A stretch of 64,000 nt of DNA from Emiliania huxleyi CCMP1516 (GCF_000372725.1 NW_005202428.1:1163331-1227330); one strand, 5' to 3'. Shown: positions 824-63,828, numbered from the stretch's first letter. Notes: generated by a model not told the origin, from the letters alone. Numbers and translations: made by a program.

Positions 824-871
<48 letters not shown>

Positions 872-3375: not shown

Positions 3376-5155
3376 TGAGATCACCAACATAACCTCCACC
3401 ACCACCACCGCCACCACCACCCACCATCGCCACCACCACCCACCGCCACCGCCGCCTTCCACCCAGGCGGCGGCCGCGCGACGCGCGCGCGTGGCGCGGC
3501 AGCGCGACGACGAGAGCGACTACAATCCGGAGCTCGGCATCCTCATCACCCCGTGAGCGCAGAGGCGGGTCACGGCGCGGGGTGACGTTGCGGCATTGCT
3601 GGGGCGTGCGTAGGCGCCTTCCTCGTGTCGGACGATTGCCCTCGCTGCGGGCTGCAGGTCACCTCGGGCCACGAGGCGCACCTGCGGGTCTGCCAGGGCG
3701 GGGGCAAGAGCGCACGCGCCAAGAAGGGCAAGGGGGGCGGCAAGGGAGGCGGCAAGGGAGGCGAGGGCGGCGAGGGAGGCGCCGGCTCGAGCGGCGCCAA
3801 GGCGAGGGCGGCGAGGGGCGGGCGCGAGAAGCGGAGGGCGGCGGTGGTCAGCTCCGAGGCGGAGAGCGAGAGCGAGGGCATCTCGGAGGAGGTGCTGCCC
3901 CCCACACCACCCACCCACCCACCCACCAACCCCCCCTGCGCGCACCGGGCCTTGCACTTTGAATGCCGTGCGGCTCCTGTCGTTGGACGTGGAGTTAGGA
4001 GGGAATGCCTGGCGCTTGCCCCACCGCCCTCGTGCGTGTGGAGAAGTGTGCCTTGCCTTACCTTACCTCAGGTGCTGCCGTCTTCGTCGCGAGCGAAGTC
4101 GGCCGCGGCGCCCAAGGCGGCGGCGGCGGCGCCATCACCGGCACCGGCGGCGGCGGCGGCTCGGAAGGCGGCGGCGGCGGCACCCAAGAAGAGGCGAGTG
4201 GTGGTGCACGACGACGACAGCAGCGAGGAGGAGGCGCAGCCGGCGCGGCAGAGGCCAATATCGGCTGATCTCGGCTGATCTCGGCTGATCTCGGCTGATC
4301 TCAGCTAACAGGCGCAGCCGGCGCGGCAGAGGCCGACGCCGCAGAAGGCGAAGGGCCGGGCTCCTGCGGCGGCGCAGCCAAAGGGGAGGGCGGCGGCGGA
4401 GGCCAAGAAGGCGCGGCGTGGCCAGTCGAGGACGTGGACAGAAGACCCGTGAGGAGAGACAAGCAAGATGTGAATAGGCGCGGCGCGGCGCGGGCAGTTC
4501 GGAGGAGCGGCCCGCGCTACGAGGGGCAGCTGTGATTAGACGGCCTTTGAACAGTTGTGTGGCGCGGAGTAGGAGGACGAGAGCTATGAGGCGGGCGGCA
4601 GCAGCGGCAGCGAGGAGAGCGACAGCGAGGAGAGCAGTTTCAGCGACGGCGGCGAGAGCGAGGCGGAGGGCGGCGGCAGCGACAGCAGCGACGAGGGCGG
4701 GCGCGCACACAAGCAGGCGAGCGCCGTGACCTCCCAATCCTTCGACATCGTTTTCCATTCACCAGACCTTCTGCTCTCAGGCGGGCGCCAAGCAGCAGGC
4801 CAGCGCCAGGCAGTCTGCCAAGAGGCCTGTCAAGAAGGCGCCGCCCAAGCAGGCGCCGCCCAAGCAGGCGCCTCCCAAGCAGAGTTCCGCGGCTGTGAAG
4901 GGCGCCGCGAAGCCCGCGGCCAAGCGGGCGGCGGCCAAGGGAGGGAAGCAGGCCACCAAGAAGAAGAAGAAGAACGCCAGGAGGGCGGCAGACAGCAGCG
5001 ATGGCGACTACGAGGCGGACTCCTCCCCTGAGAGGCTGCCGAGCAAGGCGCGCGCAAAGGCGTCGGCGTCAGGCCGCCCCTCCCGAGGCGGGCGAATCGG
5101 CGGCCGCAAGAGTTACGTCGAGAGCGATGGCGATCACTCAGACTCGTGGTCGTGA
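2104..5155 (+). CDS. J-domain (DnaJ-type) protein with several CxxC Zn-finger motifs and a Lys/acidic low-complexity tail, multi-exon
   Basis: [18 protein letters not shown]...[13 protein letters not shown] (HPD motif); later exons CPRC, HCLRC..HCPYC, CPN..DC, CPRC..H..C; ends ...DSWS*. Confidence 0.75.
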
Positions 5156-5416
5156 GAGAGCTGCGCCAAAACTTCCAAATAAGCGCCTCACGGGTGCACA
5201 AGCGGAGATCATATTTCTCGTTTCTGCATCAAATCCACATATGACATAAAGAAAAAGAGGTCCCTTGAAAAAGAGGATCCCCCCCCCTTTCGACATTCGA
5301 GGCAGCCCCCGCGCCCCACACACAGGCTGATCACGCTCACCCAGGAGTCAGGACACACAGGTCACAGCCACACACGACACACATTCGACATCCCCAAAAA
5401 TCTGAAGTTGGGCGCT

Positions 5417-5621
5417 GGAGCGGCCGCACATTGCTCGGTACCCCCCCTGCCCTTCTAAGCCCGTCCCTGCTGCTAGGGGGGGGGGGGTTCTGACCCCCAG
5501 CAGCAGAGCGCTGCTGGGGGGGGGGGGGGGGGCCCCCCGCAACAAAACGCTGCTGCTGGGGGGGGGGTCGGCCATGGGCTTAGAAGGGCAGGGGGGGAAC
5601 CGAGCAATGTGCGGCCGCTCC
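5417..5621. mobile_element. About 205-bp fold-back (MITE-like) element
   Basis: About 46-bp near-perfect inverted repeat, 5417-5462 vs 5576-5621, enclosing CCCCAGCAGC/GCTGCTGGGG hairpins; no clear TSD. Confidence 0.7.
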
Positions 5622-6304
5622 TGATGACACGTAAAAACCCGAGAGCAGAATGAGCAATATATGACACGGAACTAGTCCTTTGAGCGTCTCGCCAAAACAC
5701 AAACTTTCATGACAGCGGGCGAGCGCGGTTACCTGTTTGCCGCGAGCGCGATGTCCCTTTTATTTATCAAGCCGTATTTAGAGAGCTGCCTGACCCTATT
5801 TCTCTATGCCACCCCGTACAGTCGTATTCCACTGTCTTTTGCGCATAACGATAAAGACCATTTCGCATTGATTTTCCGACCCCGAGCATGCGCGAGCCCC
5901 GAGCGAGCGACGCTCGACGGGTCGGGGCTCGAGGCCGTGCCGTCGACTCTGTCGTGCTCGCTCGAGGCTACAGCCTGCACACGCGCGAGCCGCTCCGGTC
6001 TTTTATTTTTATCGGTACTATGAGATTTTGCTATGCCTCAGATCCTCTGAGATGCGCGCGGCTACTTGCGCGCACACCATGACAAACAGCCACCCTCCAT
6101 CTCTCCCCTGCCACCTCAAGAGGGGGCGGCCCCGCCGGCCCCGGGGAGGGGGGTCACACTGACTCGTACCCACAGGCACAGCGCGGCACGATAGAGTGAG
6201 CCGGCGCGATGAGGGCATGCGAAGAGTCCTCGTCGGGCGCGCCATGTGTCCTTGTCAGGACTTACTTCGCGAGCGCCGATTCCGAGGAGAGTCTCCAGAC
6301 AGAC

Positions 6305-7504
6305 TCAATCGAGATCGATTTCCTCGACAAGGAAGTCGGTGGTGACCGGAACTCCTGAGCGGCCGTCCGGGTCCTCGGCGTCGTCGGGCTCGTCCTCGCC
6401 CTCGGGCTCGTCCTCGGACGATGAGAGCCACTCCACCGCCGACGCCTTTCGCTTCTTGTTCTTCTTGCCGTCCGCCGTGGCTCGTGGCGACGTCGACGGA
6501 GGCTTGAGGCCGAGGAAGCGCTCGACCCCGAGCTTTGAAGAGAACTTTCCACCGTCCGGCGCGGTGACCACCAGTTGCGTCGACATTGCCCCGGCCTTCT
6601 TGCCGGCGCTGGCGGTCCACGCCCGGCACCGCACGGTCCAGTCGTCGGTGGACTCAGTGGCCTCCGACGTGGCCCCTTTGATGTACGCCGCGGATGCGCG
6701 CTCCTTGACGGTGTCGATGGCGGAGAGGAGGCGCTCGTCGCTCTCGCTGAGCGGGCGGAGTGGAGGTGGCTTGGACGGGGCGGCACGGCTCGGCTTTGCG
6801 CCCCCCGCCGCCTTTGGCGCCGCTGGTGGCTTGAGGCCGAGTTGCCGCTCGACCGCTAGGACGGACTGCAGCCGCGTGCCGTCTGGCGCCGTCACCGAGA
6901 GCGTCGTCGCGCCAGCGGGGCTCAGCTTCACCTTGACCGTCCATCCGTTGCTGCTCGACTCGGTCGCGTCGGCCTTGTGCTGCTTGACGCGCTGCTTGAC
7001 GCGCTGGATCATGTCGAGGATGAGCCGATCGGCGGGGCTAGACTGCCGGATTTGCATCAGAGCAAGGGCGGCGGCGGGGTCCGAGGGGGCTCCTCCGCCG
7101 AGCCCGCCGCCGCCGCCATCGCCGCCGCCATCGCCGCCGGTGCCGCCGCCCTCCCGTGCCTCACGCTCCCGCGCCAGCTGCGCCAGCAGGTTGTTGGGGA
7201 TGGGCGGCGGCTCATCGTCAGAGTCGTCGAGGTCCACCGAGTCGATGTTTTGCACCGCAGTGGCGGTCACGCGCCGCACCGCTCGCCAAGCGTTGGCGTT
7301 GTCGCACCGCTCCTGGATCAGCCCCTTGCGAGGGTGCTTATACACGCGGGCGCGGCCGCCTGGGACGTCGATCACGATCTCGTTGGAAAACGCAGCTTGC
7401 GCCGGCACCCAGGCCGCTTCGAGAAGCGCCGTAACGGATGGCGAGTACGGGCGGTAATTGATCTCGGTGGCGCCTCCGGCGTCCCAGCTCCACTGTGATG
7501 CCAT
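6305..7504 (-). CDS. Intronless 399-aa protein: WWE domain + two MBD-like repeats + basic/acidic tail (copy 1)
   Basis: QWSWD..YRPYSP...LLEAAW...LIQ....WRAVRR matches WWE; GW/DW...TAPDG...S...VER.LG occurs twice, resembling MBD; KKNKKRK is NLS-like. Confidence 0.7.
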   Translation of the reverse strand: MASQWSWDAGGATEINYRPYSPSVTALLEAAWVPAQAAFSNEIVIDVPGGRARVYKHPRKGLIQERCDNANAWRAVRRVTATAVQNIDSVDLDDSDDEPPPIPNNLLAQLAREREAREGGGTGGDGGGDGGGGGLGGGAPSDPAAALALMQIRQSSPADRLILDMIQRVKQRVKQHKADATESSSNGWTVKVKLSPAGATTLSVTAPDGTRLQSVLAVERQLGLKPPAAPKAAGGAKPSRAAPSKPPPLRPLSESDERLLSAIDTVKERASAAYIKGATSEATESTDDWTVRCRAWTASAGKKAGAMSTQLVVTAPDGGKFSSKLGVERFLGLKPPSTSPRATADGKKNKKRKASAVEWLSSSEDEPEGEDEPDDAEDPDGRSGVPVTTDFLVEEIDLD

Positions 7505-7589
7505 GTGTTGGGACGGTGGTTGCTCAGGCACTCGGAGAGCAAAGCAGCAATGAGTGAAATCGGAGGAGAGATGACAAGGCGGAAAAAAA

Positions 7590-8128
7590 TCCGCGAACGC
7601 GCGCAAGTTCAAGATCCTGCAGTCGCGGAAGTGGCAGGACACGGAGCTTGACGTGGCGCGCTTCATCAAGCTCTTCCCGTCGCAGATGCACGAGGGAAAG
7701 CGCAAGCGGCCGACGGTGTTGCGCGACGCGCTCCGAGTCAACGGCGTCGGCGTGGGCTTCGAAGCGGCAGCGCGCACCGACATCGCCATGGACAAGGCGG
7801 GCGCACGAGATCAAGCTGCGGGTGCTCGAGAAGCTCACGCCGGCGCTCGGGCGGCAGACGGCCGAGCTCCTCGGACGCTTCACCCTCAAGGCGTCGAACG
7901 CGCTCAACCACGTCGCCCGTGGCTGCGAGCCCTCGGTCACACGTGAGCCGCTCGAGTACGCGGGCGAGACGCAAGCGCAGCTCTTCCGCACGCTCACCGC
8001 CACCAGCCCCTCCGAGATCCGCGACGTGCAGCACGACGCCAACCCCGCCGGCCCGACGGAGCGGCGGTGCGAGGAGGCGATGCACCTCTCGCAGCGGAAT
8101 GGCGGCTTCGGCTGGGCGCACCCACGAC
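7590..8128 (+). mobile_element. Frameshifted fragment of a non-LTR retrotransposon RT (thumb region), CRE-like
   Basis: LRVNGVGVG, frameshift near 7800, then LLGRFTL...LNHVARGCEP...HLSQRNGGFG, resembling the CRE/R2-type L(P)xRxGGLG region. Confidence 0.55.
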
Positions 8129-8281
8129 TCATGGGGTCACACTGACTCGTACCCACAGCGCGGCACGATAGAGTGAGCCGGCGCGATGAGGGCATGCGAA
8201 GAGTCCTCGTCGGGCGCGCCATGTGTCCTTGTCAGGACTTACTTCGCGGGCGCCGATTCCGAGGAGAGTCTCCAGACAGAC

Positions 8282-9484
8282 TCAATCGAGATCGATTTCC
8301 TCGACAAGGAAGTCGGTGGTTTCCGGAACTCCTGAGCGGCCGTCCGGGTCCTCGGCGTCGTCGGGCTCGTCCTCGCCCTCGGGCTCGTCCTCGGACGATG
8401 AGAGCCACTCCACCGCCGACGCCTTTCGCTTCTTGTTCTTCTTGCCGTCCGCCGTGGCTCGTGGCGATGTCGACGGAGGCTTGAGGCCGAGGAAGCGCTC
8501 GACCCCGAGCTTTGAAGAGAACTTTCCACCGTCCGGCGCGGTGACCACCAGTTGCGTCGACATTGCCCCGGCCTTCTTGCCAGCGCTGGCGGTCCACGCC
8601 CGGTACCGCACGGTCCAGTCGTCGGTGGACTCAGTGGCTTCCGACGTGGCCCCTTTGATGTACGCAGCGGATGCGCGCTCCTTGACGGTGTCGATGGCGG
8701 AGAGGAGGCGCTCGTCGCTCTCGCTGAGCGGGCGGAGAAGTGGCGACGGCTTGGATGGGGCGGCACGGCTCGGCTTTGCGCCCCCCGCCGCCTTTGGCGC
8801 CGCTGGTGGCTTGAGGCCGAGGAGCCGCTCGACCGCTAGGACGGACTGCAGCCGCGTGCCGTCTGGCGCCGTCACCGAGAGCGTCGTCGCGCCAGCGGGG
8901 CTCAGCTTCACCTTGACCACCCATCCGTTGCTGCTCGACTCGGTCGCGTCGGCCTTGTGCTGCTTGACCCGCTGCTTGACGCGCTGGATCATGTCGAGAA
9001 TGAGCCGGTCGGCGGGGCTAGACTGCCGGATTTGCATCAGAGCAAGGGCGGCGGCGGGGTCCGAGGGGGCTCCTCCGCCGAGCCCGCCGCCGCCGCCATC
9101 GCCGCCGCCATCGCCGCCGGTGCCGCCGCCCTCCCGTGCCTCACGCTCCCGCGCCAGCTGCGCCAGCAGGTTGTTGGGGATGGGCGGCGGCTCATCGTCA
9201 GAGTCGTCGAGGTCCACCGAGTCGATGTTTTGCACCGCAGTGGCGGTCACGCGCCGCACCGCTCGCCAAGCGTTGGCGTTGTCGCAGCGCTCCTGGATCA
9301 GCCCCTTGCGAGGGTGCTTATACACGCGGGCGCGGCCGCCTGGGACGTCGATCACGATCTCGTTGGAAAACGCAGCTTGCGCCGGCACCCAGGCCGCTTC
9401 GAGAAGCGCCGCAACGGATGGCGAGTACGGGCGGTAATTGATCTCGGTGGCGCCTCCGGCGTCCCAGCTCCACTGTGATGCCAT
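8282..9484 (-). CDS. Intronless 400-aa WWE + 2xMBD-like protein (copy 2)
   Basis: Paralog of 6305-7504 with intact frame and several amino-acid changes. Confidence 0.7.
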   Translation of the reverse strand: MASQWSWDAGGATEINYRPYSPSVAALLEAAWVPAQAAFSNEIVIDVPGGRARVYKHPRKGLIQERCDNANAWRAVRRVTATAVQNIDSVDLDDSDDEPPPIPNNLLAQLAREREAREGGGTGGDGGGDGGGGGLGGGAPSDPAAALALMQIRQSSPADRLILDMIQRVKQRVKQHKADATESSSNGWVVKVKLSPAGATTLSVTAPDGTRLQSVLAVERLLGLKPPAAPKAAGGAKPSRAAPSKPSPLLRPLSESDERLLSAIDTVKERASAAYIKGATSEATESTDDWTVRYRAWTASAGKKAGAMSTQLVVTAPDGGKFSSKLGVERFLGLKPPSTSPRATADGKKNKKRKASAVEWLSSSEDEPEGEDEPDDAEDPDGRSGVPETTDFLVEEIDLD

Positions 9485-9824
9485 GTGTTGGGACGGTGGT
9501 TGCTCAGGCACTCGGAGAGCAAAGCAGCAATGAGTGAAATCGGAGGAGAGAGGACTCGGCGAAAAAAAAATACGCCTGCTCAAGTCCGAGTTCACCACAA
9601 ACTCACCACTTGGCGGTAAATGATCGCAGTGGGCGTCAGAAGAGTCATCCTTGCGCGAGGAGAGCTCGATAAACTCGAGGGGCCAGGATTGGGCCGCGAG
9701 GAGGGCAGAGTTACGCCGAGAGGCGAGAGCAAGGGATCGGCAGGCAGCGGCGTCGTCGCAGAACGAGGCAGAGGGGAGCGAAGCGACAGAGGAAGAAGCG
9801 ACAAGAGAAAGAACGACGAGAGTG

Positions 9825-10015
9825 GGAGGACCGCGAGGTGGTATGAAAGTTGCAGCGAGAATCGGAGAGGGACTGCGAAGAGAGATAGGAAGAGGCAGAC
9901 GCCCAAGGGTGGGCGACGGCTAGCGCACCACACCCCTCTTCTTAAAATCCCTGTGTGGTGGCGGCGTGCCGTCCTCCCATCCCTCCCTTGGGTTGCCTGT
10001 TTTCTTTCTTTTTTT
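9825..10015 (+). repeat. Dispersed repeat module R1 (core AAAATCCCTGTGTGGTGGCGGCGTGCCGTCCTCCCATCCCTCCCTTGGGTTG.CTGTTTTCTTTC)
   Basis: About 190-bp near-identical reverse copy at 35720-35915; further copies near 33945, 35980, 45810; partial or diverged copies near 30440, 35385, 38560, 43970, 45620. Confidence 0.9.
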
Positions 10016-10535
10016 CACAACCTCACCCGCCGCAGGCCTTGCTCAACCAGGTCGAGCACACATGATAGGGCGGATCTCTAAAAGAAAAACAAAGGTCCAT
10101 ACACACTTAACAAAAGAGGGGTGGGGTCGGTCCGCCACGTACCTAGGTACGGGCGAAAACCAGCAGTCCTCCTCCGGGAATGTTCGCCCCTGTCGCCTGT
10201 CTGTGTTGTTGTGCTGTTGTTTGTCTCTTGGCACCTTGGAGTGCTGGGGGGGGCGACAGGGGGGGGACGTGGCCTTGAGTGATGTGTACGCCCACTCAGG
10301 GTGTGTGTGGCAGCCCGCTGGCTGTGGTGTCTTGTGAGCTTGTTTGTGTCTGTGTGTCGCTCGTGCGTGTCGTCATCATCTGTCCAGCGTCCACCCATAC
10401 CGCGTTGGTGTCCAGTCCGAGCCTGACTGTTCTTCGCCTTCCTACATACATACGTAAGAGCTACATACACTACGTACGTACACTGAAATGAACGTGAGAA
10501 CACTCAAACTTGAGTCACGCTTGAAACCATCGACC

Positions 10536-11901
10536 ATGGCGCCAATCGCCGCCCCATCTCCCGCGCAATTTGTTGCGTCCATGGGGATGGGAATAAACCT
10601 CGGCAACGTGCTCGATGCGCCGAAGGAGGGCCAGTGGGCGGCGCCTGCAGAAGAGCGATACTTTGACTCTTATGCTGCGGCCGGCTTCCGGTCGGTGCGC
10701 GTTCCGTGTCGCTGGTCTCAGCACACGTCGACAACCCCTCCTTACATCACCGCACACAATCCATTCCTGGCGCGTGTATTTGAGGTCGCTGGCTGGTCAA
10801 TCTCTCGCAAGCTTCGGACTGTAATCAACGCGCACCACGATGATTGGCTCGATGGCGCGGCTGATGACGCGGCATTTACGAGGGCGCTGGACCGTCTCGT
10901 CGCCATCTGGCGTACCGTCGGCGAACGCTTCGCCCACGTCCCCGACAACCTGCTCGCCTTTGAGGTGTACAACGAGCCCCACTTAAACATGACGACCCGC
11001 TGGCTCAACCGGATGAATGCCGCAGTGCTCGCGGTTCTACCGAGTAGGGTTTCCCGGATTCCCGTAGGACCTCTGCGACACTTTGCTGCGCGTACGAGTA
11101 GGCCATCCGCGAGACCAGCCCGACGCGTACCGTCTTTCTGGGTGGGCTGCGGTGGATGAACCCGCACTGGATCGTGACCAACCCCGACGCCATCGACCTG
11201 TTGCCCGAGCCGGCGCCGTCGGACCCGCACGTGGCACTCGAGGCACCTGTCGATAACCACAGGAGCGCCTCGCATCGGGTCCGGCCCCCTAACCCTGTCG
11301 CCCTGCCTGTCTCTCGAGGTTCACTCCTACAATCCGTTCGACTTTTGTGGCGGCGACGGGGGTAGGCCGCCGCGCGTGCACTCGTGGCCCGTCGGCGCCG
11401 TAGAAGATTGGGCAACGCAGCTTCACGCGTGGGCGGAGCGGCGCAACGTCTCCATACTGCTCGGCGAGTTTGGATGCACGCGCCGGCAGAGCAACGCGAG
11501 CGGCCGCCTCGCGTGGTACGCCGCGTCTGCCGCTGCGGTCGCGCGGCACGGTTTTGCCGCGACGGTGTGGGACGATTCGGGCGACTTTGCCGTCTGGGTG
11601 CGCGTGCGTATTGCGACTTGCGTTGCGTGATGATGGTCTTCACGGCCCGCCCCGTGCCTTCCAGGACCGCAAGACCGGCGCGTGGGACGAGGCGGTGCTC
11701 CGTGCGCTAGGGCTCGAGGGCGCAGCAACATCGCCAGCGCGGGGCTGGCCCGGTTTCCCCGCTGCGAGGGGAATGGATGGGTTGCCGCCGCTCTTGGGCG
11801 ACACTCGGCTACCCGGGCCCTCGTGGCGCCCATTCGACTACGGGCAGGGCGGGAGCTTGGGCGGGGAGGTAGTGAGAGGTCGAGGCGCGCAGGTCGCGTG
11901 A
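10536..11901 (+). CDS. Glycoside hydrolase family 5 (endoglucanase/cellulase-like), 4 exons
   Basis: GINLGNVLDA, GFRSVRVP, INAHH, FEVYNEP (acid/base), HSYNP, LLGEFG (nucleophile), WDD. Confidence 0.9.
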
Positions 11902-12200
11902 AGAGGTGAGGCAATAGAGGTGACACATACAGGGAGCACTACTTTTCGTCTTCCCCCCCTCACAACAACACTCAACAGAAAGACAGACACAGCTACACCT
12001 CTTTGCAGGAGGCTTGCAAGGGAGGGCGAGGGAGGACGGCTCAAGGCACAGGGTCGGGAAATAAATAAAATGGAGCCAGGCAGGACCCACCCGTGAGTAG
12101 GAATCTTAGAAAAAAAAAACGGCGCACGCAAGGCGGTCCGTCGAGCGGCGGCTCCCGGCTCGCTCGGCTCGCACGGCTCGCACAGGCTCGTCCTATTCCT

Positions 12201-14414
12201 ATGGACACCTGCGAGTACGACGACAGCCTCCCATACAGGTACTTTCTGCCAAACGGCTCGCTGGTGACCCATGGCGTCTACACGGATGTCCCCGGCTACT
12301 CTGCACCGGTGTGCGTCTTCAGCACCGAGCTCTGTGTCAGCAACATGCGCGGCGAGACGTCCGACGAGTGCTGCAAGCCCAACTCGTCGCAGCCGCCCTT
12401 CTGGGTCCCGCTCGTCATCGGCGTGGTTGGCTACGAAACCTTGAAGCAGGTCGTCGGCTCTTGGTTGCGCGGCAAGGAGGAGGCCAGGTCGGCCATGGCC
12501 TTGGCCCGCGAAGCGCACGCCAAGGACGACGTGCTCTTCGTTGACTGGTACCTTCCGGATCTTGGCCCTGGGTGCAAGCTCCTGATACCGGGCCACGCCC
12601 ACGCCTACACTGTCAAGGCGCTCGGCCTCGGGGAGACGGCGAGGGCATCGGCGCTCACGGACGGCAGCCTGCCGATCACGCTCAGGGAAGGTCTATCTGC
12701 CGGCGCGAGCGCGGGCACGAGTGTCACGGAGAGGGAGGTTGACGACCCTATGGAGCATATGTTCCGACAGTACGACGGCCTCGGAATGCTCGTCCTATTC
12801 ATCGTCTTTATGCTCAGCCTCTCGGCGGGCATCATGCAGGGCTCAATCATGGCGCCAGAGATCCAGGCGACGCTCGACCCGACCGAGCGCTCCGCCGAGC
12901 TCGCAATCTCCTCATTTATCGCGCCCGTGCGCGAGATCTTTGCCTTCCTCGAGGACGGGATGGTGGTGCGCGTCTCGTACGCCATCGCCGCCGGCCGCAA
13001 CGCGGAGCTCAACCTGCTTCTGCACATCTCCATCGTCGGCGGCATCGCCACCGGCCTGCTCGCCTTCCTCTGCATGATGGCCATCGCGCTCTCGCCCTCG
13101 GCCGCGGTCCTCCTCGACCCCTCCTCCTCCTCCAACCAGCAGCTGCTCGAGGAGGGCTGCTCTCTCGTGCCGGAGCCCGCGACGCTGCTCGCCGCAGCGC
13201 GCTCGTACTGGCTGCTCGCCACCGCCGTCTGGATCGGCGGGTTCATGCGAAAGGGCGTCGACGGCTTCATGCTGGGCTCGGGCTACCTGATCACGTACCT
13301 GATGCCCTCGATCCTCAGCGGCGGCTTGCCGCTCGTAATCTGGTTCGTTGGCAAGCCGGCGACGAGCACAAACGGCTTCTCGCCGCTGACGCTGCTCGGC
13401 GTGGCGATGGGCACCGACGACTGGATCAACGCCATCGCGCTGCTCCTCTTCATTGCGTGCGCGCGCGACCTCCAGAAGCGTTACGACCTGCGGCTGCTCC
13501 TGCCGTGGCGAAAAGCACCCCCGGGCGCGCCGGGCGAGACGTCACCGAGGGAGGTCATGCTCAAGGTGCTGCGTGAGAGCTCCGAGCTGATGATCATCGA
13601 CCTGGTCATTCAGGTCTCACGCACCGCAACCATATACCTCGCCGCCAGCCAGTCGGCCGAGCTGGCGTACAAACTCTCCGCGCCAGCCGCTGCATATTGG
13701 GTCCTGGGTCCCGCAAACGTGCAAGGCTACATCATCATGTTCCGCACGATGGGCTCGAAGCTGATCGCAAACGGCCGGCACCGCGCATATCTGCAGATGT
13801 TCCTCGCCGTCTTCCTCCTCTCGCTCATCATGTCAGTCTACTCAGTCATCGCCTCGATCATATGGCGAGACGAGTTTACGCAGAGCTACGGCAAGACCGC
13901 ATGCGTCTACGCATCGAGCGCCAACTGCACGGGCGCGTACGCCAATGTCTTTATGACCCCCGGCGGTGGGACCGAGACGTCCGCCTTCAACCTCCCGGGC
14001 GTTTTCGTCGCTCTCGGGCCTGTCGTCGGGGTGCGAATGATCTTTATGACGGCCCGCGTCGGCCTCAACACGTCGCACGACTTCCGGTACATGTCGCTGT
14101 GCGCGCTGGCTGCAGGCATCGCCTTCATCCCGATGCTACTCGTTTGCCACTACTACTGGCGCAGTGCCCTCGGCTACTACCTGTCGATGAACCTGGTCGA
14201 GTTTCTGCTCGCGATTCTCTACGGCGCGCGCATGGTCGGCCACGTCCACAAGCTGATCAAGGGCGAGCCGGGGCCGTGGACCGAGCACATGGGCGAGGTC
14301 CGCCGGGCGACGGAAGAGCGGCTCAGCAAGGGGCGGGCGTCTCGAGGACCGTCAAGGCGCGACTCAAGTAGGGCGAAAGTCATGGACTCAAGGCAAGTCC
14401 TGGAGCTGGAATGA
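12201..14414 (+). CDS. Intronless polytopic membrane protein, MATE/MOP-superfamily transporter-like
   Basis: About 737 aa with roughly 12 hydrophobic segments; IFAFLEDGMVVRVSYAIAAG resembles the MATE TM2-loop signature. Confidence 0.6.
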   Translation: MDTCEYDDSLPYRYFLPNGSLVTHGVYTDVPGYSAPVCVFSTELCVSNMRGETSDECCKPNSSQPPFWVPLVIGVVGYETLKQVVGSWLRGKEEARSAMALAREAHAKDDVLFVDWYLPDLGPGCKLLIPGHAHAYTVKALGLGETARASALTDGSLPITLREGLSAGASAGTSVTEREVDDPMEHMFRQYDGLGMLVLFIVFMLSLSAGIMQGSIMAPEIQATLDPTERSAELAISSFIAPVREIFAFLEDGMVVRVSYAIAAGRNAELNLLLHISIVGGIATGLLAFLCMMAIALSPSAAVLLDPSSSSNQQLLEEGCSLVPEPATLLAAARSYWLLATAVWIGGFMRKGVDGFMLGSGYLITYLMPSILSGGLPLVIWFVGKPATSTNGFSPLTLLGVAMGTDDWINAIALLLFIACARDLQKRYDLRLLLPWRKAPPGAPGETSPREVMLKVLRESSELMIIDLVIQVSRTATIYLAASQSAELAYKLSAPAAAYWVLGPANVQGYIIMFRTMGSKLIANGRHRAYLQMFLAVFLLSLIMSVYSVIASIIWRDEFTQSYGKTACVYASSANCTGAYANVFMTPGGGTETSAFNLPGVFVALGPVVGVRMIFMTARVGLNTSHDFRYMSLCALAAGIAFIPMLLVCHYYWRSALGYYLSMNLVEFLLAILYGARMVGHVHKLIKGEPGPWTEHMGEVRRATEERLSKGRASRGPSRRDSSRAKVMDSRQVLELE

Positions 14415-14564
14415 CGGGCGGCGCGCCCTACGCCTGTGTGCGTGGGCGCGCGCGCACACAAATAATGTAGTCCTTTTATTATAGTTTATTATATGTAAAG
14501 CACACGGGCTAGTGCCATTTCACTGTGGCACAGCTCGCGTTACAAAACCTTGATTTGACCATTT

Positions 14565-14714
14565 GCGCCATTTTGTCCCTCTCGGTGCCTTCCAGAGGCA
14601 GCTGCGACCCCGCCAAGTGGACGGGGGCACCCGGCAGGTGGCGCGGAGTCCCCCCGTCCACTCGGCGGGGTCGCAGCTGATTCTGTGCGTCCTGGGGAGG
14701 GACAAAATTGTCGC
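14565..14714. repeat. About 150-nt imperfect palindrome (hairpin)
   Basis: 29-bp arms at 14599-14627 and 14651-14679 (1 mismatch), plus outer ATTTTGTCCCTC/GAGGGACAAAAT arms. Confidence 0.8.
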
Positions 14715-15306
14715 CGCCGGAGACGACTCGACGCCGCTGAGATTGGAGATCAAGCTCTGACAGGTCGCACGTCGCTCCTTTGACGCCGACGTGACTCACC
14801 CGTGCAGATCACATCAGGACACGGTCTCGACGCGCTCGGTACGACGCCTGCGACCCGTCTCGGGTAAGGTGGCACGACGCTCATCGCGCCTACCAGCGCT
14901 GCCGTACACGTTGCCACGACGAGGTCGAGCACGCTTCTATACGCTCGCCGAGCCTTCCTTTCCATCCAATTAGGCAGCCTGGGAACGGTGGCGGTCAGAG
15001 GCAAAGCCTACGAGGGGTGGTGGAACCACATGTCACGGCTACTGCCGGCTCGACCCCACGATAGCCTCCGAAGGCTGACTTTGCGGCACCATCATCGGAC
15101 GATGTCGACGAGTTGGGTCGCTCTCGCGGTAGCCAGATGACCTCTCTTTCTAGGAGCATCGGCCATGGCCGCAGGGAGCGCGGGGGAGGGCGCTGGAAGC
15201 AACACGGAGCTCCGTTGGAGACGTTTTCAAGAGATTAGCGTGTCAGAGTGAAATGGCACTAGCCACGCCATTCGATTCGCCCAGCGCTTATATATCGCGC
15301 CGCACA

Positions 15307-49175: not shown

Positions 49176-52100
49176 ATGAACGCGATACCGGTGGCGGACG
49201 AGGACTCGGACGACCTTCCGCTGGTTCGGGTGCGCTGCTACGCGCGGCGGGCGCTCCACTGGCGGCTCGACGTGGCTCCGCTCTGCGCCGCGTATGCCGC
49301 TGCGTTTGGCGCCTACGCCCTTCGGCCCGAGCTAGAGGAGGTGGCTGTCGTCGGCACGCCGTGCCTAGTGCTGGCGCACCTGCTGCTCTTCCTCGCCACG
49401 CACTGGTCTGTCCGCGTCCGGTGCGCCACCCAGCTCTACGCCTGCCCTCCGGCCAGAGCATCGCTGGTCTGCGCCGAACCCGCCTCCGGAGCGCCGCGCC
49501 TCTGCCCGCTGGAGCGCGAGGCGGCCGCGCCGGACGCCTTCTTCTTCACCTACCACAAGCGCAAGTACCTCCTCGGTGCTGCTGGCAAGGGCGGCGGCTC
49601 GCCGTCATGCCGCAAGCTGCGGATGCCGTCGAGCGAGCCGCTCTCGCACTACGCCGAGTGCGCGGGGCTGCAGACGCCGGCGGCGGTCGAGGCGGCGCGG
49701 GCGCGGTACGGGTCGAACGACTTCTCCATCCCGCGGCCCGCCTTCTCCGAGCTGCTGCAGGAGCACGCGACGGCACCTTTCTTCGTCTTTCAGATGCTCT
49801 GCGTGCTGCTCTGGCGCCCGCGACTGCTAGCGCTCCGCGGCCGAGCCCAGCGCCTCTCCACGCCCACCGGCTGTGCACGGCGTGTGGCGTAGGTGCCTCG
49901 ACGACTACTGGTACTACTCGGTCTTCACGCTGCTGATGCTGCTCCTTTTCGAGTGCGAGATCAGTCGAGATCGGTCGAGATCAGTCGAGATCAGTCGAGA
50001 TCGATCGAGGTCGTCCGTCGCGCAGTCGTGCCCTCTGTGAAGGCAGCACTCCTCGGATCTCTCTCCCCCCCCGAGGTGCACCGTCATCAAGTCGCGCCTC
50101 CGCAACGTCGACGAGCTCTCCGAGCTAGCCACGCCCGCCTCGGCCGTGCTCGCCCGCCGCTGCGGTTGGGGGCGCATGTCCTCGTCCTAGCCACCTTTGA
50201 GCAGCGCTGGTTCATACCTCCGGCCGTGAACAGGCAAGTGGGAGCGGCTCTCGTCGACCGACTTGCTCCCGGGTGACCTCGTCGCGCTCGCGCGCACGCC
50301 GGCCAGCCGCCTCTAGATGCTGAACACAGGGCGTTGACCTCACACCGCTCGAGAGGCCACGTATTCGACGGGACTCGGCTGGATTCTACAGTGGATTCCC
50401 GCCCCGACTTTTCGACGCAGCGAGCCGCCCCATCTCGGCCATCTCTGCCCACATCCCCCCACAATTCCCCACATCTCCCCAACTCTCCATCCCACAGGCG
50501 AACCGCCTCCTCGGCCAGCCAGTCGACACCATCGTGCCGGCGGACGTGCTTCTGCTCCACGGCTCGAGGCGCCTAGATGCGGGAGAAGACACGAGGGTGC
50601 CCTCGCGAGCAGCCGACACGAACACTCCCGGAGACAGCGATGTGTCTCCGCGACACAGAGAGCTCTGCTCTCCCTCCCGGCGGCGGCGGCCTCGCGCACT
50701 AGTCGTGACTCGCCGGCAGACGGCGGAGGGGTCGTCAGAGAGCGAGCATTCGTCTCTAGCGAGCCGCAGACACGAGGGGACTCATCTCCACGGCACCCGA
50801 CGGCACCTTCGCGCCGTGTCCACGCCCTCGTGCCGACACACACACTGCTGCACGCAGCACACCGTCTCCGTCTCCGTCCCCCCCCCCCCCCCCCTCCCCT
50901 GGCGCAACCCCGCTCCGGGCCCGCTCGCCCTCCACGACTCCAAGACATGTCCATCCCCCGCCCACATAGACACAGACATGTCCCACGTCCCCACGACACG
51001 TCCACGACACGTCCCGCAGGCTCGCTCGCCCTCAACGAGTCCGCGCTCACCGGCGAGTCGACGCCGCAGCTCAAGGAGCCCCTCCCCTCGCTCGGCCTCC
51101 CCCCCTCCACGCGGCTCAACCTCGCCGAGCACCGCGCCTGCGTCGCCCTCGGCGGCACCAAGCTGCTGCAGCACTCCGCCGGAACCCAGCCGCGCTCGCA
51201 GCAGCCGCCCGGCGGCGGCGCCGTCGGCGTCGTCCTGCGAACCGGCTTCCACTCGTCGCAGGGCAAGCTGATGCTCTCCTCCTAGATGCCTACGGCAGAG
51301 CACATGTCTGTGCTCGTCGGCCTCGTCTTCTCGCGGTGCTGCGAGTGCACTGCACGAGCCCCCGTCCTCCCGCCCCCCCCTACAACTCTCTGCCGTCTCT
51401 CCACAGCGCAGGCGCACCATCCTGTCCGCGACGGAGCTCTGAGTTAATCAGTGGGCTGGTTACTTCACTAATCAGGCGAACGATCCTCTTCGCGACGGAG
51501 CGGGTAAACGGCTCTGACCGCGAGACGCTGCTCTTCATCCTCTTCCTGCTCGCCTTCGCCATCGCCGCCGCCGGCCACGTCCTCTCCGTCGGTCTTGCCG
51601 ACCCGGCTCGCTCGCGGCGAGCCTCAAGACTCAACCGACACACCTCCGAGACACACCCGACACACGGACCCGAGATCCGCGAGGCGCGTCCGAGACACGT
51701 CCTAGACACGTCCGAGACTCATACGACGAGACGGCCGCACTGCTCCGCACGGTGATCACAGTGCGGTGGTCGCGCCTCTCCACGCCTCCGCCTGTGTGGA
51801 CAGGCACAAGCTAAGGTAAGGTAAGGTAAAATTCTAGGTACAAGCTCGCGCTGCACTGCATGATGATCGTCACGTCGGTCGTGCCGCCCGAGCTGCCGAT
51901 GGAGCGCTCGCTCGCCGTCAACCTCCCGCTGCTGTGAGCGGCGTCTCTTCACACCTCCAGCTGTGAACAGGAGCTCTCCCTCGCCGTGAACCACTCGCTG
52001 CTCGCGCTGCACCGGCGGGACATCTTCTGCACCGAGCCCTTCCGCATCCCTTTCGCGGGCAAGGTGCAGCTCTGCTGCTTCGACAAGACGGGCACGCTCA

Positions 52101-53963
52101 CCTCGGACGACCTCGTCGTGCAGGGCGTTGCAGCCGTCCCGTCTGGCAGCGGCGGCGGCAGCAAAGGCAGCGATGGCGGTAGCGACGGCGGCGGCGGCGG
52201 CGGTAGCGACGGCGGCGGGGCGGCGTCCACAGGGAAGGCGGCCGCAGGGAAGGCCGCAGGGGGCGCGGGGACGGGGTCGGGCGGCCTCGTGTCGGAGCTG
52301 ATTTCGCCGCTCGCGCTGCCCGCGCCGAGCGTCGCCGTGCTCGCCGGCTGCCACCACCTCATGCTTGTCGACGGGTGCGGGGCGCAGCCTCCTCCCCCTC
52401 CTCCTCCATCCACCACCACCTCCTCCTCGATCAGCCACTCGAGATCCTCCCGAGACCCGCACAAAAACGCAATTGCGCTGCCACCCGCCCGCCACCGACC
52501 CCGCCGACGCCTCTGCACGCCGCCTCTGCCCGCACCGCCTCTGCACGCCGCCTCTGCACGCCGCCTCTGTCCGCACCGCCATGCCCACAGTTACACGCAC
52601 GCCTGCTGACGCGTCCGCGACACGCCTGCAGCGAGCTGCTCGGCGACCCGATGGACAAGGCGGCCGTCGGCGCGGTTGGCTGGAGCTACGCGCTCGAGGG
52701 GCTGTGCGTCAGCCGCGCGCCGAGCAGGCGCGGCTCCCTGCGCCTCCTGCAGCGCTTCGCCTTCGCGTCGAGCCTCAAGCGGTCGAGCACGGTCGTCGAG
52801 GTCGAGAGCCTCGACGGCGCGGCGCCTCCGCCGCAGCAGCGGCTCCGCGCGCTCTGCAAAGGCGCGCCGCAGCGCGCGTGCGTGCGTGCGCGCGCCGCTC
52901 GCTGCGGGAGGGGAGGGCCGCTGTCCACTCACCTCCGGCCGTGCCGCGAGTAGGAGCGCCGGAGACGGTGCGCGAGCTGCTCGGCCGCGTGCCAGAGGGG
53001 TGCGGCGCCGCCCAGCTCCTGGAGAGAGACGGCCCCCCAGACGGGTCTGCCGCCCGCGGGCAGGTACGACGCCGCCTACCTCCACCACGCGCAGCAGGGC
53101 AAGCGCGTGCTCGCGCTGGCGTACAAGATGCTGCCGCAGCTGCAGCCGCAGGAGGCGCGCAGGCTCTGTCCCTCTTCTCTTTTACTAGCTCGAGACGACT
53201 CGGCGTGTGCCCCATCGTTTCGTGTGCACGGCAACGACCCACCCCGGTGCGTTCACACACCCCCGGTGCATTCACACCCTCGTGCATTCACACCGCAGGC
53301 GCGCAGTCTGTCTCGTGAGGCGGTCGAGTCGGAGCTCACCTTTGCCGGCTTCCTCGTGCTGCACTGCCCCGCAAAGTCCGAGTCGGCGGGCGTGCTCGCC
53401 GCCCTCTCCTCCTCGTCGCACGGGCTGCAGATGATCACCGGCGACCAGATGCTGACGGCGGCCCACGCGGCGGCGCAGCTGCGGTTGATCACAAAGCCGC
53501 CCCTCCTCCTCGCCGCCCTCCCTCCTACCGAGGGCGCGGCGGGCGGGGGCGCGGCGGGCGCGGCCCTTCGGTGGGAGAGCTTCGGCGGCGGCGGCAGCGG
53601 CGGCGGCGAGGAGGTCACTGAGCCGTTCGAATCGAGCGGCGCCGCGATGCGGAGGCTCGCGGAGCGGTACGCCCTCTGCTGCGACGGCGCCGGCTTCGAG
53701 GCCCTCCAGCGGCTCGGCCTCCTCGCCTCGGCGCTGCCGCACGTGTCTGTGCTCGCCCGCATGGCGCCGGACCAAAAGGCGCCGCGCCGAGGCCGAGGCG
53801 CTTCTCCCCGCGCGTGACCCACACGCCACTCACCGCACGCGGTCTCTCGTGCGAAGGAGCTGGCCCTCAGCGAGCTCAAGCGCGCGGGCATCACGACGCT
53901 CATGTGCGGAGACGGCACCAACGACGTAGGCGCGTGCAACCCCTCCCCCTTCCCCCACCACAC

Positions 53964-54061
<98 letters not shown>

Positions 54062-54933
54062 CACACACACCGCCAGATCGCCACCACCATTTCACTCCAA
54101 GCGCCTCACGGGAGTCCGCACGGCCCGCTGCCGGCATCCGGAGCCGCAATGCCAGTGCCCATTGAGCCTCAGCGCCGGCGCCGGCAGGAGCGCTCAAGCG
54201 GTCGGCTGTCGGCGTCGCGCTGGTCAACGCGACACTTGTGGCGCCGCCACCGCGCGCCGCCGACGTCGCCGACGAGGTGGCCGGCGCGGAGGCGGCCAGC
54301 GCGGGGCAGAGCGGGCTGCGGCAGCGGCGCGGCAGGCCGGCGGGGCGGCCCGGCCTGCAGGCGGCGAGACTAGCCGAGATTCGCCGAGATTCCGCCGAGA
54401 TCCGCCGAGATGTGCCGTCGCCCCGGCCTGCAGGAGCGGCTGCAGGAGCACGAGCTGCCTCGGATGAAGCTCGGCGACGCCTCCATCGCCGCCGCCTTCA
54501 CCGCGCGCTCTGCGTCGGTCGGCTCGTGCGTCGACATTATCACGCAGGGTCGCTGCACGCTCGTGACGACGCTGCAGATGTGCAAGATTCTCGCGCTCAA
54601 CTGCCTCGTCTCCGCCTTCTCGCTCTCCGTCCTCCACCTGCAGGGCGTGCGCATGGGCGACACGCAGGCCACGTGCAGCGCTCTCGGCGCCGCTCCGCCG
54701 CACGCGCTTCGGACCCTCGCGAGCCGCGCTGTCCGCCTGAGCTAGCCTCCCTCTCCGCAGGCACGGCCCTCTTCTTCCTCTTCCTCTCCTCGTCGCGACC
54801 GCTCTCGCGCCTCTCGAAGCGGCGGCCGCCCGCGTCGGTGCTCTCGCCGTACGTGTTTTGCTCGATCCTCGCGCAGGTGGCGGCGGCGGCGGCGGCGGTT
54901 GTGTGGTGATGGTGTGTGTGTGTGTGTGCGTGC

Positions 54934-54988
<55 letters not shown>

Positions 54989-55622
54989 TGTGGGGGGGGG
55001 GGGGGGGGCGTGTGTGTGGGGGCGTGTGGCGGCCGTTGGCGCACACACCCGGTCAGACACCTGGCAGCACGCCTCCCGTCCCCGCACCGCGCGCGGGTTA
55101 GCGAGCGGCGAGAGGAGACCCGCCGCCCTTTCCGCCCTCTGCCTTGCAGGTAGCGGTGCATCTGCTCGTGCTGCTGCGCACCTCGGCGCACGGCACGCGG
55201 AGCCTGGCCGCTCGGCGCCCGCCCCTTGCGAGGTGGGGCGTGCCTCGGAATAGGCGCTCGGCGAGGAGCACGGGCCGAGCGAGCCGCCCGAGCCGGACGG
55301 CGAGTTCGAGCCCTCTTTGCCAAACTCGATCGTGTGGCTCGTCTCGACCGGGATGCTCATCACCACCTTTGTGGTCAACTACAAAGGGCGGCCCTACATG
55401 GAGAGCCTCGCCTCCAACCGCGGCCTGGCGGGCACGCTCGCCGCCTCGGCGCTGCTCATCCTCACCCTCGCCGCCGGCGCGCTCCCCGACCTCGCCGCCT
55501 ACCTCGAGCTGGTGCCGATCGAGAGCGAGGCGCTTCGCGGCGAGCTGCAGGCGCTGCTCGCGATCGACTTTGGCGCGTGCTGGCTGCTCGAGCGGGCAAT
55601 CTCGCGCCTTTGGTCTTACTGA
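49176..55622 (+). CDS. P5A-type ATPase (ATP13A1/Spf1-like), many short exons
   Basis: [68 protein letters not shown]. Confidence 0.95.
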
Positions 55623-55862
55623 GGCACCCAGTTGGGCGCCGGAAACCTCAGTCAGCGAAGCGGGGGCGTCCACAGATATTATAACGCCCGAGAGGAGCCG
55701 CGAGGGGTAGGGCTTGTGAACCGAAGAGGAACCAATTAAACGAAATCCAAATCCTTCAAAGTGAAAAACTTCAGAAAGAAAAAAGAAAAACGAAGCGCCG
55801 CTCCAGCAGCCAGCGGCTCGCTCCTTTTGAATCGTCTGAGCCGCCGCAGCCCTACACTACGT

Positions 55863-61713: not shown

Positions 61714-62081
61714 GAACGCTATTTCGCCTCCTTGGGCCACGCGCTCAGTGCGATTCCCTTGCTTGGCGGCACGTCCAGCACAACCATCCCATAAGAATTT
61801 GCCAACGACAAACCCAAACAACAAACACAACACATAATAGTCGTGCGGAACGTTCCCGAGCGAGACAGAGGAGAAAGAAACGACAGCCGGCACATCATTT
61901 GGGATCTTGGGCTGGGTTTTGGTTGTTCTCGGCAAAATATTAGAAAAAGAAATCTGACCCCGCGCGGCCGAGGCCTGGAATCGCACGAGCGCGAGTACGG
62001 CCTGGCGCCCGAGCCCGGCAGGCGGTCGCTCGCAGTTCGTGCAGGCCGGTTAGGCCGCGCCGAGGCTCCCCGAAGCCAGAC

Positions 62082-63828
62082 ATGCTCGGCAGCAGCGGCC
62101 ACAGCGGCAGCGCTTGCAGCAACACGCGCCGCTCGGAGGTGGAAGCAACTCGCTCGTTGATCGCCGACCTGTCCTGGAACAATCTGTCCTGGCAACAAGC
62201 AAAGACGGTGCTCCTCGGCGCGCAGAAGGCACCGGACAGCCGCTTCTTCGAGCTGCCGCAGGTACTAGTGCCGAAGATTTTGAAAATGGCGCACCGGCCG
62301 CAGTGGCAGCCGAGGTTCACTGGTCTGCGCGCTGTGCCGCGAAGGATGGGCCTGATCAGCGCCCGAGGCACCAGGCTCTCCTTCCGGGCGAACCCGAGCC
62401 TGGTGGAGAGCGACGACCCGCGCTCGACGCCCTCGGTCGAGCTCGACGGCGAGGGCGTGCAGGCGTGCGTCCTCCGGCTGAGCGAAGTCGGGATCGGCAG
62501 CGTCGTCCGCCTGTTTCGCGTCTCTGACGGCGGCGAGCAGCTCGCCGTCTGCTTCTCGGTTGACCCTCGCTGGGACACCAGCCCCGAGCGGGAGTTCTCC
62601 CAGGAGGAGGTGCACGTCCTGTTTGACGCGCCCCGGTCGCGCGCCACCTCGGAGTGGGCCACGCTGCTGCCGCAGCACGAAGGGCGGGCCGTGCCCGCAG
62701 GCCGCGTCGAAAAGTACCTCGCGCACGTGGCCGGCTGGTCTGGCTGGTCGTCCGGTCGATGCAGCGGGGCTGGCCCGGATGGGCGCGCGCAGGACGTCGA
62801 GCTCCACTTTCTGTTTGATTTTGAGCGGCGGACAGTGCGGCTCGGCCTGTGCGCAGAATGGGCGGTGGACGGCATGTCGGATTGGGGCGTGACGGGCTGG
62901 CGCTTCTTTGGCCGCGCCTTCCCGCTGGGCGAGGGGCGGCTGCGGCTCGGCATCGCGGGCTTCTACGGCGACGCGGGAAGGGTCGCGCAGCCGCGACGGC
63001 GGTGTCCAACTCCCGGAGCCTTCCGTGTACCTTCTAGGAAGCTTCCGAGTAGGTGGTGCAGCCTGACGGCGGGGTGGAGATCAAGCGGGTGAGCGCGACG
63101 GTGTCTGCCCCGCACCCGAGCGGCGAGTTCTACACCGCGTTCGCCGAGAACTTGTGCGAGGAGGAGGGGGTGGCGCCCCAGGTGGTGGCGGAGCTCCGCC
63201 GGGCGTTTGACACGGCGGTTGTGTCGGGCACGCCGTGGAGCTGGGTGGAAGCGGTGGTACCGCTTCTCGGAGCCCTCTGATCTCGGAACTTTCCCTAGGC
63301 ATAATCGAGCCGGAGCGGTGGAGCCCGTGCGAGGAGGAGCCCAGCGAGCGAGGAGGCTGGACTATGCCCAGCAATGGCGAGCGCGGCCGCGCCCTGATCT
63401 GCGCCAACCGGAATGCAGAGGCGTGCGCTCTCCGTCTCCGGCCGAGTGCCCTCCGTGTGCCGTTAGGAGCCTTCTAGGAGCCTTCCTGTCTGCAGGCGTG
63501 CAACCCGGCCGAGTGCGTGTCGTGCCAGTTCGCAAACAGCAACGGTTGGCAGGACTTTTGCTTCTCGACGGGGTGCGACGGCGGGGGTTGGGGACAGTCC
63601 GCTAGCACGAGCACTTGGAACTGCGACGTCCGCCGCTCAGGCTGCCGCAAGCCGGCGCCCCACTCCGACCCGTGGCGCGCAGACCAGCCGCTCGAGTGGT
63701 GGTGCTGCGCCGGAGACGGCGAGGAGGAGGGGTGCGGCTTCGCGGTGTGCGGTCCCTGCCATGCCGCGGCGCCCGACGCGCACGCGCAGACGGGTTGCAC
63801 GATGCCGCTGCTGCAGCGGTGGTGGTAG
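62082..63828 (+). CDS. Hypothetical multi-exon protein with F-box-like motif and C-terminal ZZ/DC1-like Cys finger
   Basis: FFELPQVLVPKILKM; last exon WNCDV...C...WWCC....CGFAVCGPC. Confidence 0.5.

Follow-up and report, generated by a model that had tools for sequence, protein, structure and literature searches.

How new spliceosomal introns originate is a long-standing open question, and clear footprints of intron gain are rare because such footprints decay. Short direct repeats flank 43% of the introns gained in Daphnia, where they have been read as products of staggered-break repair (PMC3443670). In the introners of Micromonas, Aureococcus, dinoflagellates and Chrysochromulina, the junction is duplicated and a splice site is taken from the duplicated target (PMC9860276, PMC11282704), and in AGGT tandem duplication the donor or acceptor copies the AG|G of the neighboring exon, such that exon sequence can be the source of a GA or GC donor (PMC3443670). 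Here we describe a 64,000-nucleotide stretch of the Emiliania huxleyi CCMP1516 genome (GCF_000372725.1, NW_005202428.1:1163331-1227330), referred to below as the window and numbered from its first letter. In this window, many introns of unrelated genes carry direct repeats at their splice junctions, and these repeats are probably footprints left by DNA insertions in which 8-33 bases of an exon edge were duplicated, creating or enlarging introns.

The E. huxleyi introns share several features with the gained introns of Daphnia as described in PMC3443670: the direct repeats overlap the junctions, the filler between them is unrelated to the flanks, the host genes are unrelated, and the coding sequence is restored by removing one repeat together with the filler. 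Unlike in Daphnia, the duplicated blocks in E. huxleyi can be as long as 20-33 nt, the introns contain older copies in their interior, certain copies extend across the spliced junction, and the filler is in many cases a 10-11-bp array typical of the species. Furthermore, the novelty of the Daphnia introns was shown by their absence in relatives, whereas that of the E. huxleyi introns is inferred. Like introners, the window introns have a duplicated junction and a splice site derived from the duplicated target; however, the introner duplications reported in PMC9860276 and PMC11282704 are 3-9 bp, fixed per family and often associated with inverted ends, whereas those in the window are 8-33 nt with no inverted ends, and the introns that bear them share only the 10-11-bp unit. 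The likeness to AGGT tandem duplication lies in the copying of a neighboring AG|G and in the inheritable GA or GC donor, and the difference is that the E. huxleyi introns copy one side only, with unrelated filler between the copies. Supplementary tables 5 and 6 of PMC9860276 place E. huxleyi introners in five families with mean lengths of 37-70 bp, and those supplementary tables give the status of target-site duplications (TSDs) and terminal inverted repeats as '?' in four families and 'N' in one. In listings and abstracts we found no published description of junction repeats in E. huxleyi introns; the genome paper may describe intron repeats. The repeat-filler-repeat arrangement fits insertion with target duplication, a process known in kind from Daphnia and introners.

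Our set comprises 25 introns, including 8 with listed or implied RNA joints and 12 that were modeled within one gene, that of a P5A-type ATPase. The RNA evidence consists of contig runs that behave like RNA (labeled 'RNA?'), none of which is on record as RNA. Contigs of runs X8 and X1 skip stretches that run from GY to AG on the gene strand, and the DNA-like run X15 reads through such stretches. Removal from RNA is indicated by seven joints among those listed and by one further joint implied by pieces, and an acceptor-side piece start is available for 3 more introns; for the other 14, no RNA evidence was found among the joints listed. As expected of U2-type introns in this species, all 25 end in AG and their donors are GC in 16, GT in 7 and GA in 2, which may be compared with the 56-65% GC, 35-40% GT and approximately 4% GA reported for E. 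huxleyi donors by Feldmesser et al. (PMC4028052).

An initial annotation of the window had pointed to seven introns (r1 to r7), in unrelated genes, that are bounded by direct repeats running beyond the AG|G consensus. Its six exact repeats are all found where it placed them, each as a maximal exact match: 10 bp at 3890/4070, 25 bp at 4232-4256/4310-4334, 8 bp at 36980/37046, 10 bp at 53153/53297, 13 bp at 54349/54422 and 8 bp at 63419/63494. Likewise, the diverged copy that it described at 51902/51971 is present, with 27 of 32 positions identical, and the array said to fill a 78-nt intron is a 10-bp tandem array of 4.6 copies at 4261-4306. To place these repeats against a background, we counted direct repeats of at least 8 bp at spacings of 40-1000 bp, of which the window holds 3825 pairs. 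For local G|GY...AG|G pairs (n = 59,887), the probability of a repeat of at least 8 bases is 0.0064 and of at least 10 bases 0.0018. When real donors are combined with wrong real acceptors (240 pairs), scores of at least 6, 8 and 10 arise with probabilities of 0.1125, 0.0167 and 0.0083, respectively. The chance expectation is therefore one or two 8-mers among the 60-100 introns in the window. Since 8-bp repeats are this common, lone 8-mers (those of r3, of the first block of r6 and of intron d, introduced below) prove nothing alone. In contrast, chance is not expected to yield the 32-nt diverged copy or the repeats of 25, 13 and 10 bp.

We next considered an independent set of eight RNA-supported introns at positions 1-20000 (seven joints with long sides and one from pieces), none of which had been listed in the initial annotation. 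Their junction repeats measure 3, 3, 6, 3, 8, 9, 6 and 3 bases. By a mismatch-tolerant score, five of the eight reach at least 6 (wrong-partner null 0.1125, p = 7.5e-4) and two reach at least 8 (null 0.0167, p = 7.3e-3). Taken as a whole, the junction-repeat pattern is real.

In the main test, each intron was aligned to the 30-base exon edges that flank it and to the equivalent 30-mers from every other intron (48 foreign edges). We observed that the own exon edge beats all 48 foreign edges in 10 of the 25 introns (a, b, e, p3, p4, p10, r7, r2, r5 and r6), where approximately one is expected (binomial p = 2.4e-8). The same holds for 6 of the 18 introns that the initial annotation had not claimed (p = 5.6e-5) and for 3 of the 8 in the RNA set alone (p = 3.3e-3). 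The controls are flat, with 1 of 25 for exon segments 30-60 nt from the junction and 1 of 25 for reverse complements; ab initio pseudo-introns, which are unverified, give 2 of 38. The excess is specific to junction-adjacent exon sequence and to direct orientation. The junction repeats also stand above the background of unrelated splice-site pairs, as break repair would have it.

These results bear on the simplest alternative, namely that chance acts together with splice-site consensus, donor and acceptor regions both resembling (G)CAG|GCGC in a GC-rich genome and so giving matches of 6-10 bases. Wrong-partner real sites do reach a score of at least 6 in 11% of cases and at least 8 in 1.4-1.7%, the 3825 repeats of at least 8 bp lie at intron-like spacing, r1, r3 and d are unremarkable in the cognate test, and in Drosophila repeats of at least 5 bp border 25% of the introns that were gained and 26% of those that are conserved (PMC3443670). 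Chance cannot, however, yield a 25-bp exact repeat, a 32-nt diverged copy or out-of-register buried copies of 20-33 nt, nor does it accord with 10 cognate winners of 25 against approximately one expected and flat distal and reverse-complement controls. We therefore reject it for the long and buried copies and consider it very improbable as an account of the pattern, while allowing that it may explain the lone 8-mers.

Several of the copies lie away from the intron ends, in the interior. In intron a, positions 203-235 carry a copy of the spliced junction (-26 to +7) with 29 of 33 positions identical, and an 11-bp array (TCTCGGCTAGA x8.6, 276-370) separates it from the exon end. Likewise, the copy at 511-539 in b matches the spliced junction from -3 to +24 (24/27, with a 2-nt gap), and that at 50912-50941 in p4 matches it from -8 to +23 (26/30). 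In these three introns the buried copy thus extends across the joined exons, and by their sequence such copies resemble fossils of the intron-free state. The copies in p3 and p10 lie directly behind a pseudo-acceptor: in p3, positions 50420-50441 match the first 20 nt of the next exon (18/20) right after GACGCAG, and in p10, positions 51412-51437 match its first 26 nt (22/26) after GCGCAG, with a 38-nt AT-rich filler behind the copy that terminates in the current acceptor. In r6, the 8-bp repeat is followed, after an indel, by a further 12/12 match between 63438-63449 and exon offset 9-21. The identity of the copies ranges from 100% to approximately 84% (r2, 23/23 plus AG; e, 24/24; r7, 27/32; p4, 26/30; p10, 22/26), as expected for events of different ages.

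The common anatomy is thus a repeat of 8-33 bases, an unrelated filler and the repeat again, with duplicated blocks of 8, 8, 8, 9, 10, 10, 13, 20, 25, 26, 26-33 and 32 nt. We found no alignment of the fillers to the flanks and, simple repeats aside, no other copies of the introns within the window. In r2, r5 and a, the filler consists of arrayed 10-11-bp units that share the core CCGAGAT. We counted 25 occurrences of this core where 8.2 would be expected, a count reached in 0 of 100 shuffles, and the clustered runs of the core at 286-358, 4268-4294 and 54374-54411 lie within introns a, r2 and r5. Apart from simple repeats, this unit is the only sequence common to unrelated introns in the window. 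In a small sample, arrays or single copies in the CCGAGA orientation tend toward the 5' part of introns (a, r5, p11 and p5 among them; mean relative position 0.33 for 18 sites in 5 introns) and the TCTCGG orientation toward the 3' part (r2, r3, f and p3; mean 0.64 for 7 sites in 4 introns). The fillers of e (16775-16844) and p10 (51438-51475) are AT-rich, for example TTAATTAA and TTAATCAG, in a genome of 65% G+C, and might be captured foreign or organelle DNA.

Such arrays raise the question of whether the repeats are target-site duplications of a mobile family of introners, that is, of a short non-autonomous CCGAGAT-array element that is spliced out. Gozashti et al. 2022 list 653 introner elements for E. 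huxleyi CCMP1516, and introners of the haptophyte Chrysochromulina sp. with 4-bp TSDs co-opt a splice site (PMC9860276). Moreover, the enriched arrays fill r2, r5 and a, which carry long duplications of 25, 13 and 26-33 nt. On the other hand, repeat length varies from 8 to 33 nt rather than holding to a fixed short TSD, terminal inverted repeats above shuffles (p<0.05) were found in 0 of 26 introns, and the introns share nothing beyond the 10-11-bp unit and simple repeats. Most of the repeat-bearing introns (d, e, r4, r6, r7, p3, p4, p10 and b) have array-free fillers, and the array-bearing p9 and p11 have no repeat. We therefore regard a mobile family as an unlikely general explanation, although a mobile array element may be at work in a subset of introns, which would be compatible with the data.

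A plain tandem duplication of an exon segment bearing AGG(T/C), as in the Rogers model, would have the whole intron start as exon sequence. It is the only mechanism shown in vivo according to PMC3443670, and the window is rich in tandem repeats (110 rows of Tandem Repeats Finder output). Intron r7 opens with a 32-nt diverged copy (27/32) of the first 32 nt of the next exon, and in e a 70-bp tandem repeat (16698-16867, 2.4 copies) re-presents the last 23-24 nt of the exon and the donor site inside the intron. While r7 and e fit this model in part, it predicts an intron covered entirely by copies of both flanks, its 5' part derived from the start of the downstream exon and its 3' part from the end of the upstream one, and what we observe is a copy of one side only plus unrelated filler that aligns to neither flank. 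In p10, the 38 nt between the copies are, by eye, unlike the sequence before the first copy. Tandem duplication of this kind is accordingly an improbable source of the set.

The initial annotation had proposed that introns arise when an exonic AG|G site is duplicated together with filler or minisatellite expansion. This is supported, in that repeat-filler-repeat recurs in introns absent from its list (a, b, d, e, p3, p4 and p10) and the excess is junction-specific and in direct orientation. Its further proposal, that the donor is a copy of the start of the next exon and that this explains GC and GA donors, stands only in part. Both GA donors among the 25 introns (16289-16455 and 51902-51970) conform to it, the GA donor of d copying the first seven bases of the next exon. 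In a, e and r5, however, the duplicated block is the end of the upstream exon and the GC donor is supplied by the filler. Across the set, 12 of 25 introns have a donor dinucleotide identical to the two bases that open the following exon, a count that includes the cases chosen in the initial annotation. Copying alone fails to give the donor spectrum, because the N of exonic AGGN has frequencies of 0.38 for C, 0.25 for A, 0.22 for G and 0.14 for T, which do not match the 16 GC, 7 GT and 2 GA donors. Copying may add to this spectrum, then, and does not explain it.

Our favored account, insertion with target duplication, agrees with two simple observations: when one repeat and the filler are removed from G(C/T/A) to AG the reading frame is restored, and in the introns with listed joints the RNA-like contigs skip exactly the stretch of one repeat plus filler. 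In this account, an ancestral gene without the filler would have received an insert, often of 35-135 bp, accompanied by duplication of the target; in three young-looking cases the insert would have been an array of the 10-11-bp unit with core CCGAGAT. The spliceosome would then adopt an AG|G within or beside the duplicated block, with the donor supplied by the beginning of either the first copy or the filler and the acceptor by either the second copy or the filler's end, and later insertions at the same junction would push older copies into the intron interior. Since the repeats are long and variable, inverted ends are lacking and the fillers are unrelated, staggered-break repair, or template switching with captured filler, is a more likely source of the insertions than a fixed-stagger transposase. 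PMC3174169 reports that no conservation of intron positions could be detected between E. huxleyi and other eukaryotes, which agrees with many gains.

Several points weigh against this account. The sample is one 64-kb window of one genome, from which intron gain is inferred. Only 8 of the 25 introns rest on listed or implied RNA joints. The 12 ATPase introns were modeled from coding score, homologue matches and cDNA length counts, some of them have near-equal alternative boundaries, and the gene itself was chosen because the initial annotation had flagged it. Fifteen of the 25 introns have no significant copy, and r1, r3 and d individually fall within chance in the cognate test. For r5, this intron together with a homology-supported 74-nt intron leaves the model 30 nt short of a 653-nt RNA-like contig count. 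Finally, one edge of every duplicated block is a present or former exon edge, which weighs against break repair because breaks in DNA would not be expected to fall at exon edges unless selection eliminated every other outcome. Either selection keeps only those insertions that are exactly excisable, or the process passes through RNA.

A passage through RNA could take the form of reverse-transcribed fragments of spliced or partly spliced transcripts that recombine into the gene. This would explain why the blocks stop at exon edges, present or former, as they do in p3, in p10 and in every in-register case, and it would explain the junction-spanning copies in a, b and p4. The latter would follow just as well from serial insertions at a single site, the copies then being remnants of the exon before its interruption; poly-A or any other mark of a retro-copy is absent from the fillers by eye. 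We give a cDNA route little weight. A more sweeping proposal is that most E. huxleyi introns are young and were made and repeatedly enlarged by one process, which copies 13-33 exon-edge bases, leaves fossils of intron-free junctions, finds exon edges via RNA or cDNA and supplies GC and GA donors; this we consider doubtful. The introns discussed individually are collected in Table 1.

Table 1. Positions, splice-site dinucleotides and evidence for introns with junction repeats or buried exon copies in the window
Intron	Position (span)	Strand	Ends, length	Repeat or array	Evidence or context
r1	3892-4071	+	GT-AG, 180 nt	AGGTGCTGCC, 10 bp, 3890-3899 and 4070-4079	exact repeat
r2	4234-4311	+	GC-AG, 78 nt	exact 25 bp, 4232-4256 / 4310-4334; 10-bp array (TCGGCTGATC x4.6), 4261-4306	repeat, frame
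r3	36982-37047 (36980-37053)	+	GC-AG, 66 nt	AGGCGCTC, 8 bp	type-2 malate/lactate dehydrogenase-like gene
r4	53155-53298 (53153-53306)	+	GC-AG, 144 nt	AGGCGCGCAG, 10 bp	ATPase; RNA-like starts at 53297
r5	54361-54433, predicted boundaries (54349-54434)	+	GC-AG, 73 nt	CCCGGCCTGCAGG, 13 bp	ATPase
r6	63421-63495 (63419-63516)	+	GC-AG, 75 nt	AGGCGTGC, 8 bp	RNA-like starts at 63494
r7	51902-51970 (51901-52002)	+	GA-AG, 69 nt		P5A ATPase; RNA-like starts at 51970 in X1, X2, X8
a	171-370 (164-396)	-	GC-AG, 200 nt		joint 169>370 in X8 and X1, shorter side 109 letters
b	479-610	-	GT-AG		joint 478>611
d	16289-16455	-	GA-AG, 167 nt	GGAAGACG (gene strand), 8 bp, 16282-16289 / 16449-16456	joint 16281>16449
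e	16527-16844	-	GC-AG, 318 nt	TCGAGCAGG (gene strand), 9 bp, 16526-16534 / 16844-16852	joint 16525>16844
p3	50302-50497 (50302-50517)	+			modeled; acceptor same in all solutions, homologue match starts 50498
p4	50562-51019 (50562-51042)	+			modeled; homologue match starts 51019
p10	51273-51475 (51273-51501)	+			modeled

Among the seven introns of the initial annotation, five are without direct RNA proof at both ends, and the joints listed include none for r1, r2, r3, r5 or any ATPase intron. The RNA-like pieces that start at 51970, 53297 and 63494 do so in three runs, and these starts are the outcome of leftmost-register alignment if the repeats border the skipped stretch. Given that r1 is in frame and without a stop, it is not confirmable by frame logic. 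The protein of a relative (P0122, 98% identical) shifts frame at approximately 3897 and stops inside r1, which suits non-coding sequence and is weak support; in the cognate test the own exon edge of r1 is unremarkable (p 0.18), and a protein search with exon 3586-3891 gave no match among longer proteins. Intron r2 has stop codons in the reading frame, which runs on for approximately 60 codons once r2 is removed. Intron r3, whose 8-mer is by itself within chance, falls at the exact position of a 22-residue gap (10 + 12) in the alignment to PDB 1wtj; the PDB alignment of the C-terminal part of this dehydrogenase-like gene was uninformative on a second intron there. For r6, more than one donor position satisfies the length count.

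The ATPase gene occupies 49134-55640, and a model with 17 introns gives a single open frame of 1229 codons that is colinear with haptophyte homologues. Within it, the 739-nt cDNA count between anchored pieces is satisfied only with a 69-nt r7: among the alternatives listed, the only boundary combination giving 739 nt is 123 + 203 + 221 plus the 69-nt r7, and an r7 of 72 nt would shift the piece start to 51973, as against 51970 observed. Intron r4 satisfies a 366-nt cDNA count, the DNA-like contig X15 reads through it, and its repeat reaches 14 identities across a 2-nt indel. The filler of r5 is an array of CCGAGAT-type 10-11-bp units at 54365-54411. Its boundaries remain candidates because of the 30-nt conflict with the cDNA length count, which would be satisfied by a 43-nt alternative (54357-54399) or by an unseen 30-nt exon. 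The sequence CTAGATGC occurs in the window only at 50313, 50573 and 51282, each time 9-11 nt inside one of three consecutive modeled ATPase introns; three matches anywhere are reached in 6 of 100 shuffles. A (CA)56 tract at 53959-54070 and a (TG)n tract at 54900-54992, in separate ATPase introns approximately 850 nt apart, form a long inverted pair within one pre-mRNA.

The window is nuclear DNA, and its exon at 49167-49811 matches Emiliania huxleyi CCMP1516 EMIHUDRAFT_460972 with 100% identity. This deposited protein of 1305 amino acids fuses an upstream gene (47680-48676) to the ATPase gene and translates several introns (window 47680-55619), its identity to the window dropping to 46-79% in the intron-translated stretches. 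Because of the fusion and the translated introns, we dropped it as junction evidence. Splice junctions are reported to be mispredicted in deposited E. huxleyi gene models (PMC4028052), and we would warn that the gene models on deposit are unreliable at such junctions. Our own trials with other approaches included ab initio gene finder models, which merged neighboring genes and missed known exon ends; length-constrained models on coding score alone, which had many near-equal solutions and improved when homologue matches were added, though these overrun into introns; and a repeat-first scan with coding check, which mostly returned coding repeats. No single 435-nt intron fits in 16844-17595, and a metagenome scan for other alleles or cDNA returned one distant locus only.

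The G+C content of the window is 62-71%, and a run of 100 N at 25440-25539 is an assembly gap. Near-identical tandem gene copies with the same pattern of open reading frames lie at 6213-7810 and 8190-9919, approximately 1977 bp apart, and share CCG repeats at 7104-7150 and 9084-9130. A single RNA-like contig (X1 record 4) spans two convergent genes over 12163-15711, a plus-strand gene at 12163-14437 and the 3' end of a minus-strand FMO-like gene at 15303-15711, with 94 nt between; the transcripts possibly overlap or were merged during assembly. The Slu7 splicing factor gene at 19853-21034 on the minus strand (Pfam PF11708, E = 3.3e-81) is itself interrupted by two RNA-supported GC-AG introns. 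Finally, a 156-bp tandem repeat (46303-47145, 5.4 copies, 80% matches) lies within a long minus-strand reading frame (46216-47715) that looks like a protein of 52-residue repeats.

E. huxleyi is an abundant and well-sequenced alga with many strain genomes, and many of its introns, 10 of 25 in the window, appear to keep the footprints of intron gain. These footprints are of several ages, and some are nested. Should the rest of the genome show the same pattern, E. huxleyi would lend itself naturally to studies of the rate of intron gain, the source of the inserted DNA and the possible inheritance of GC and GA donors from exons.

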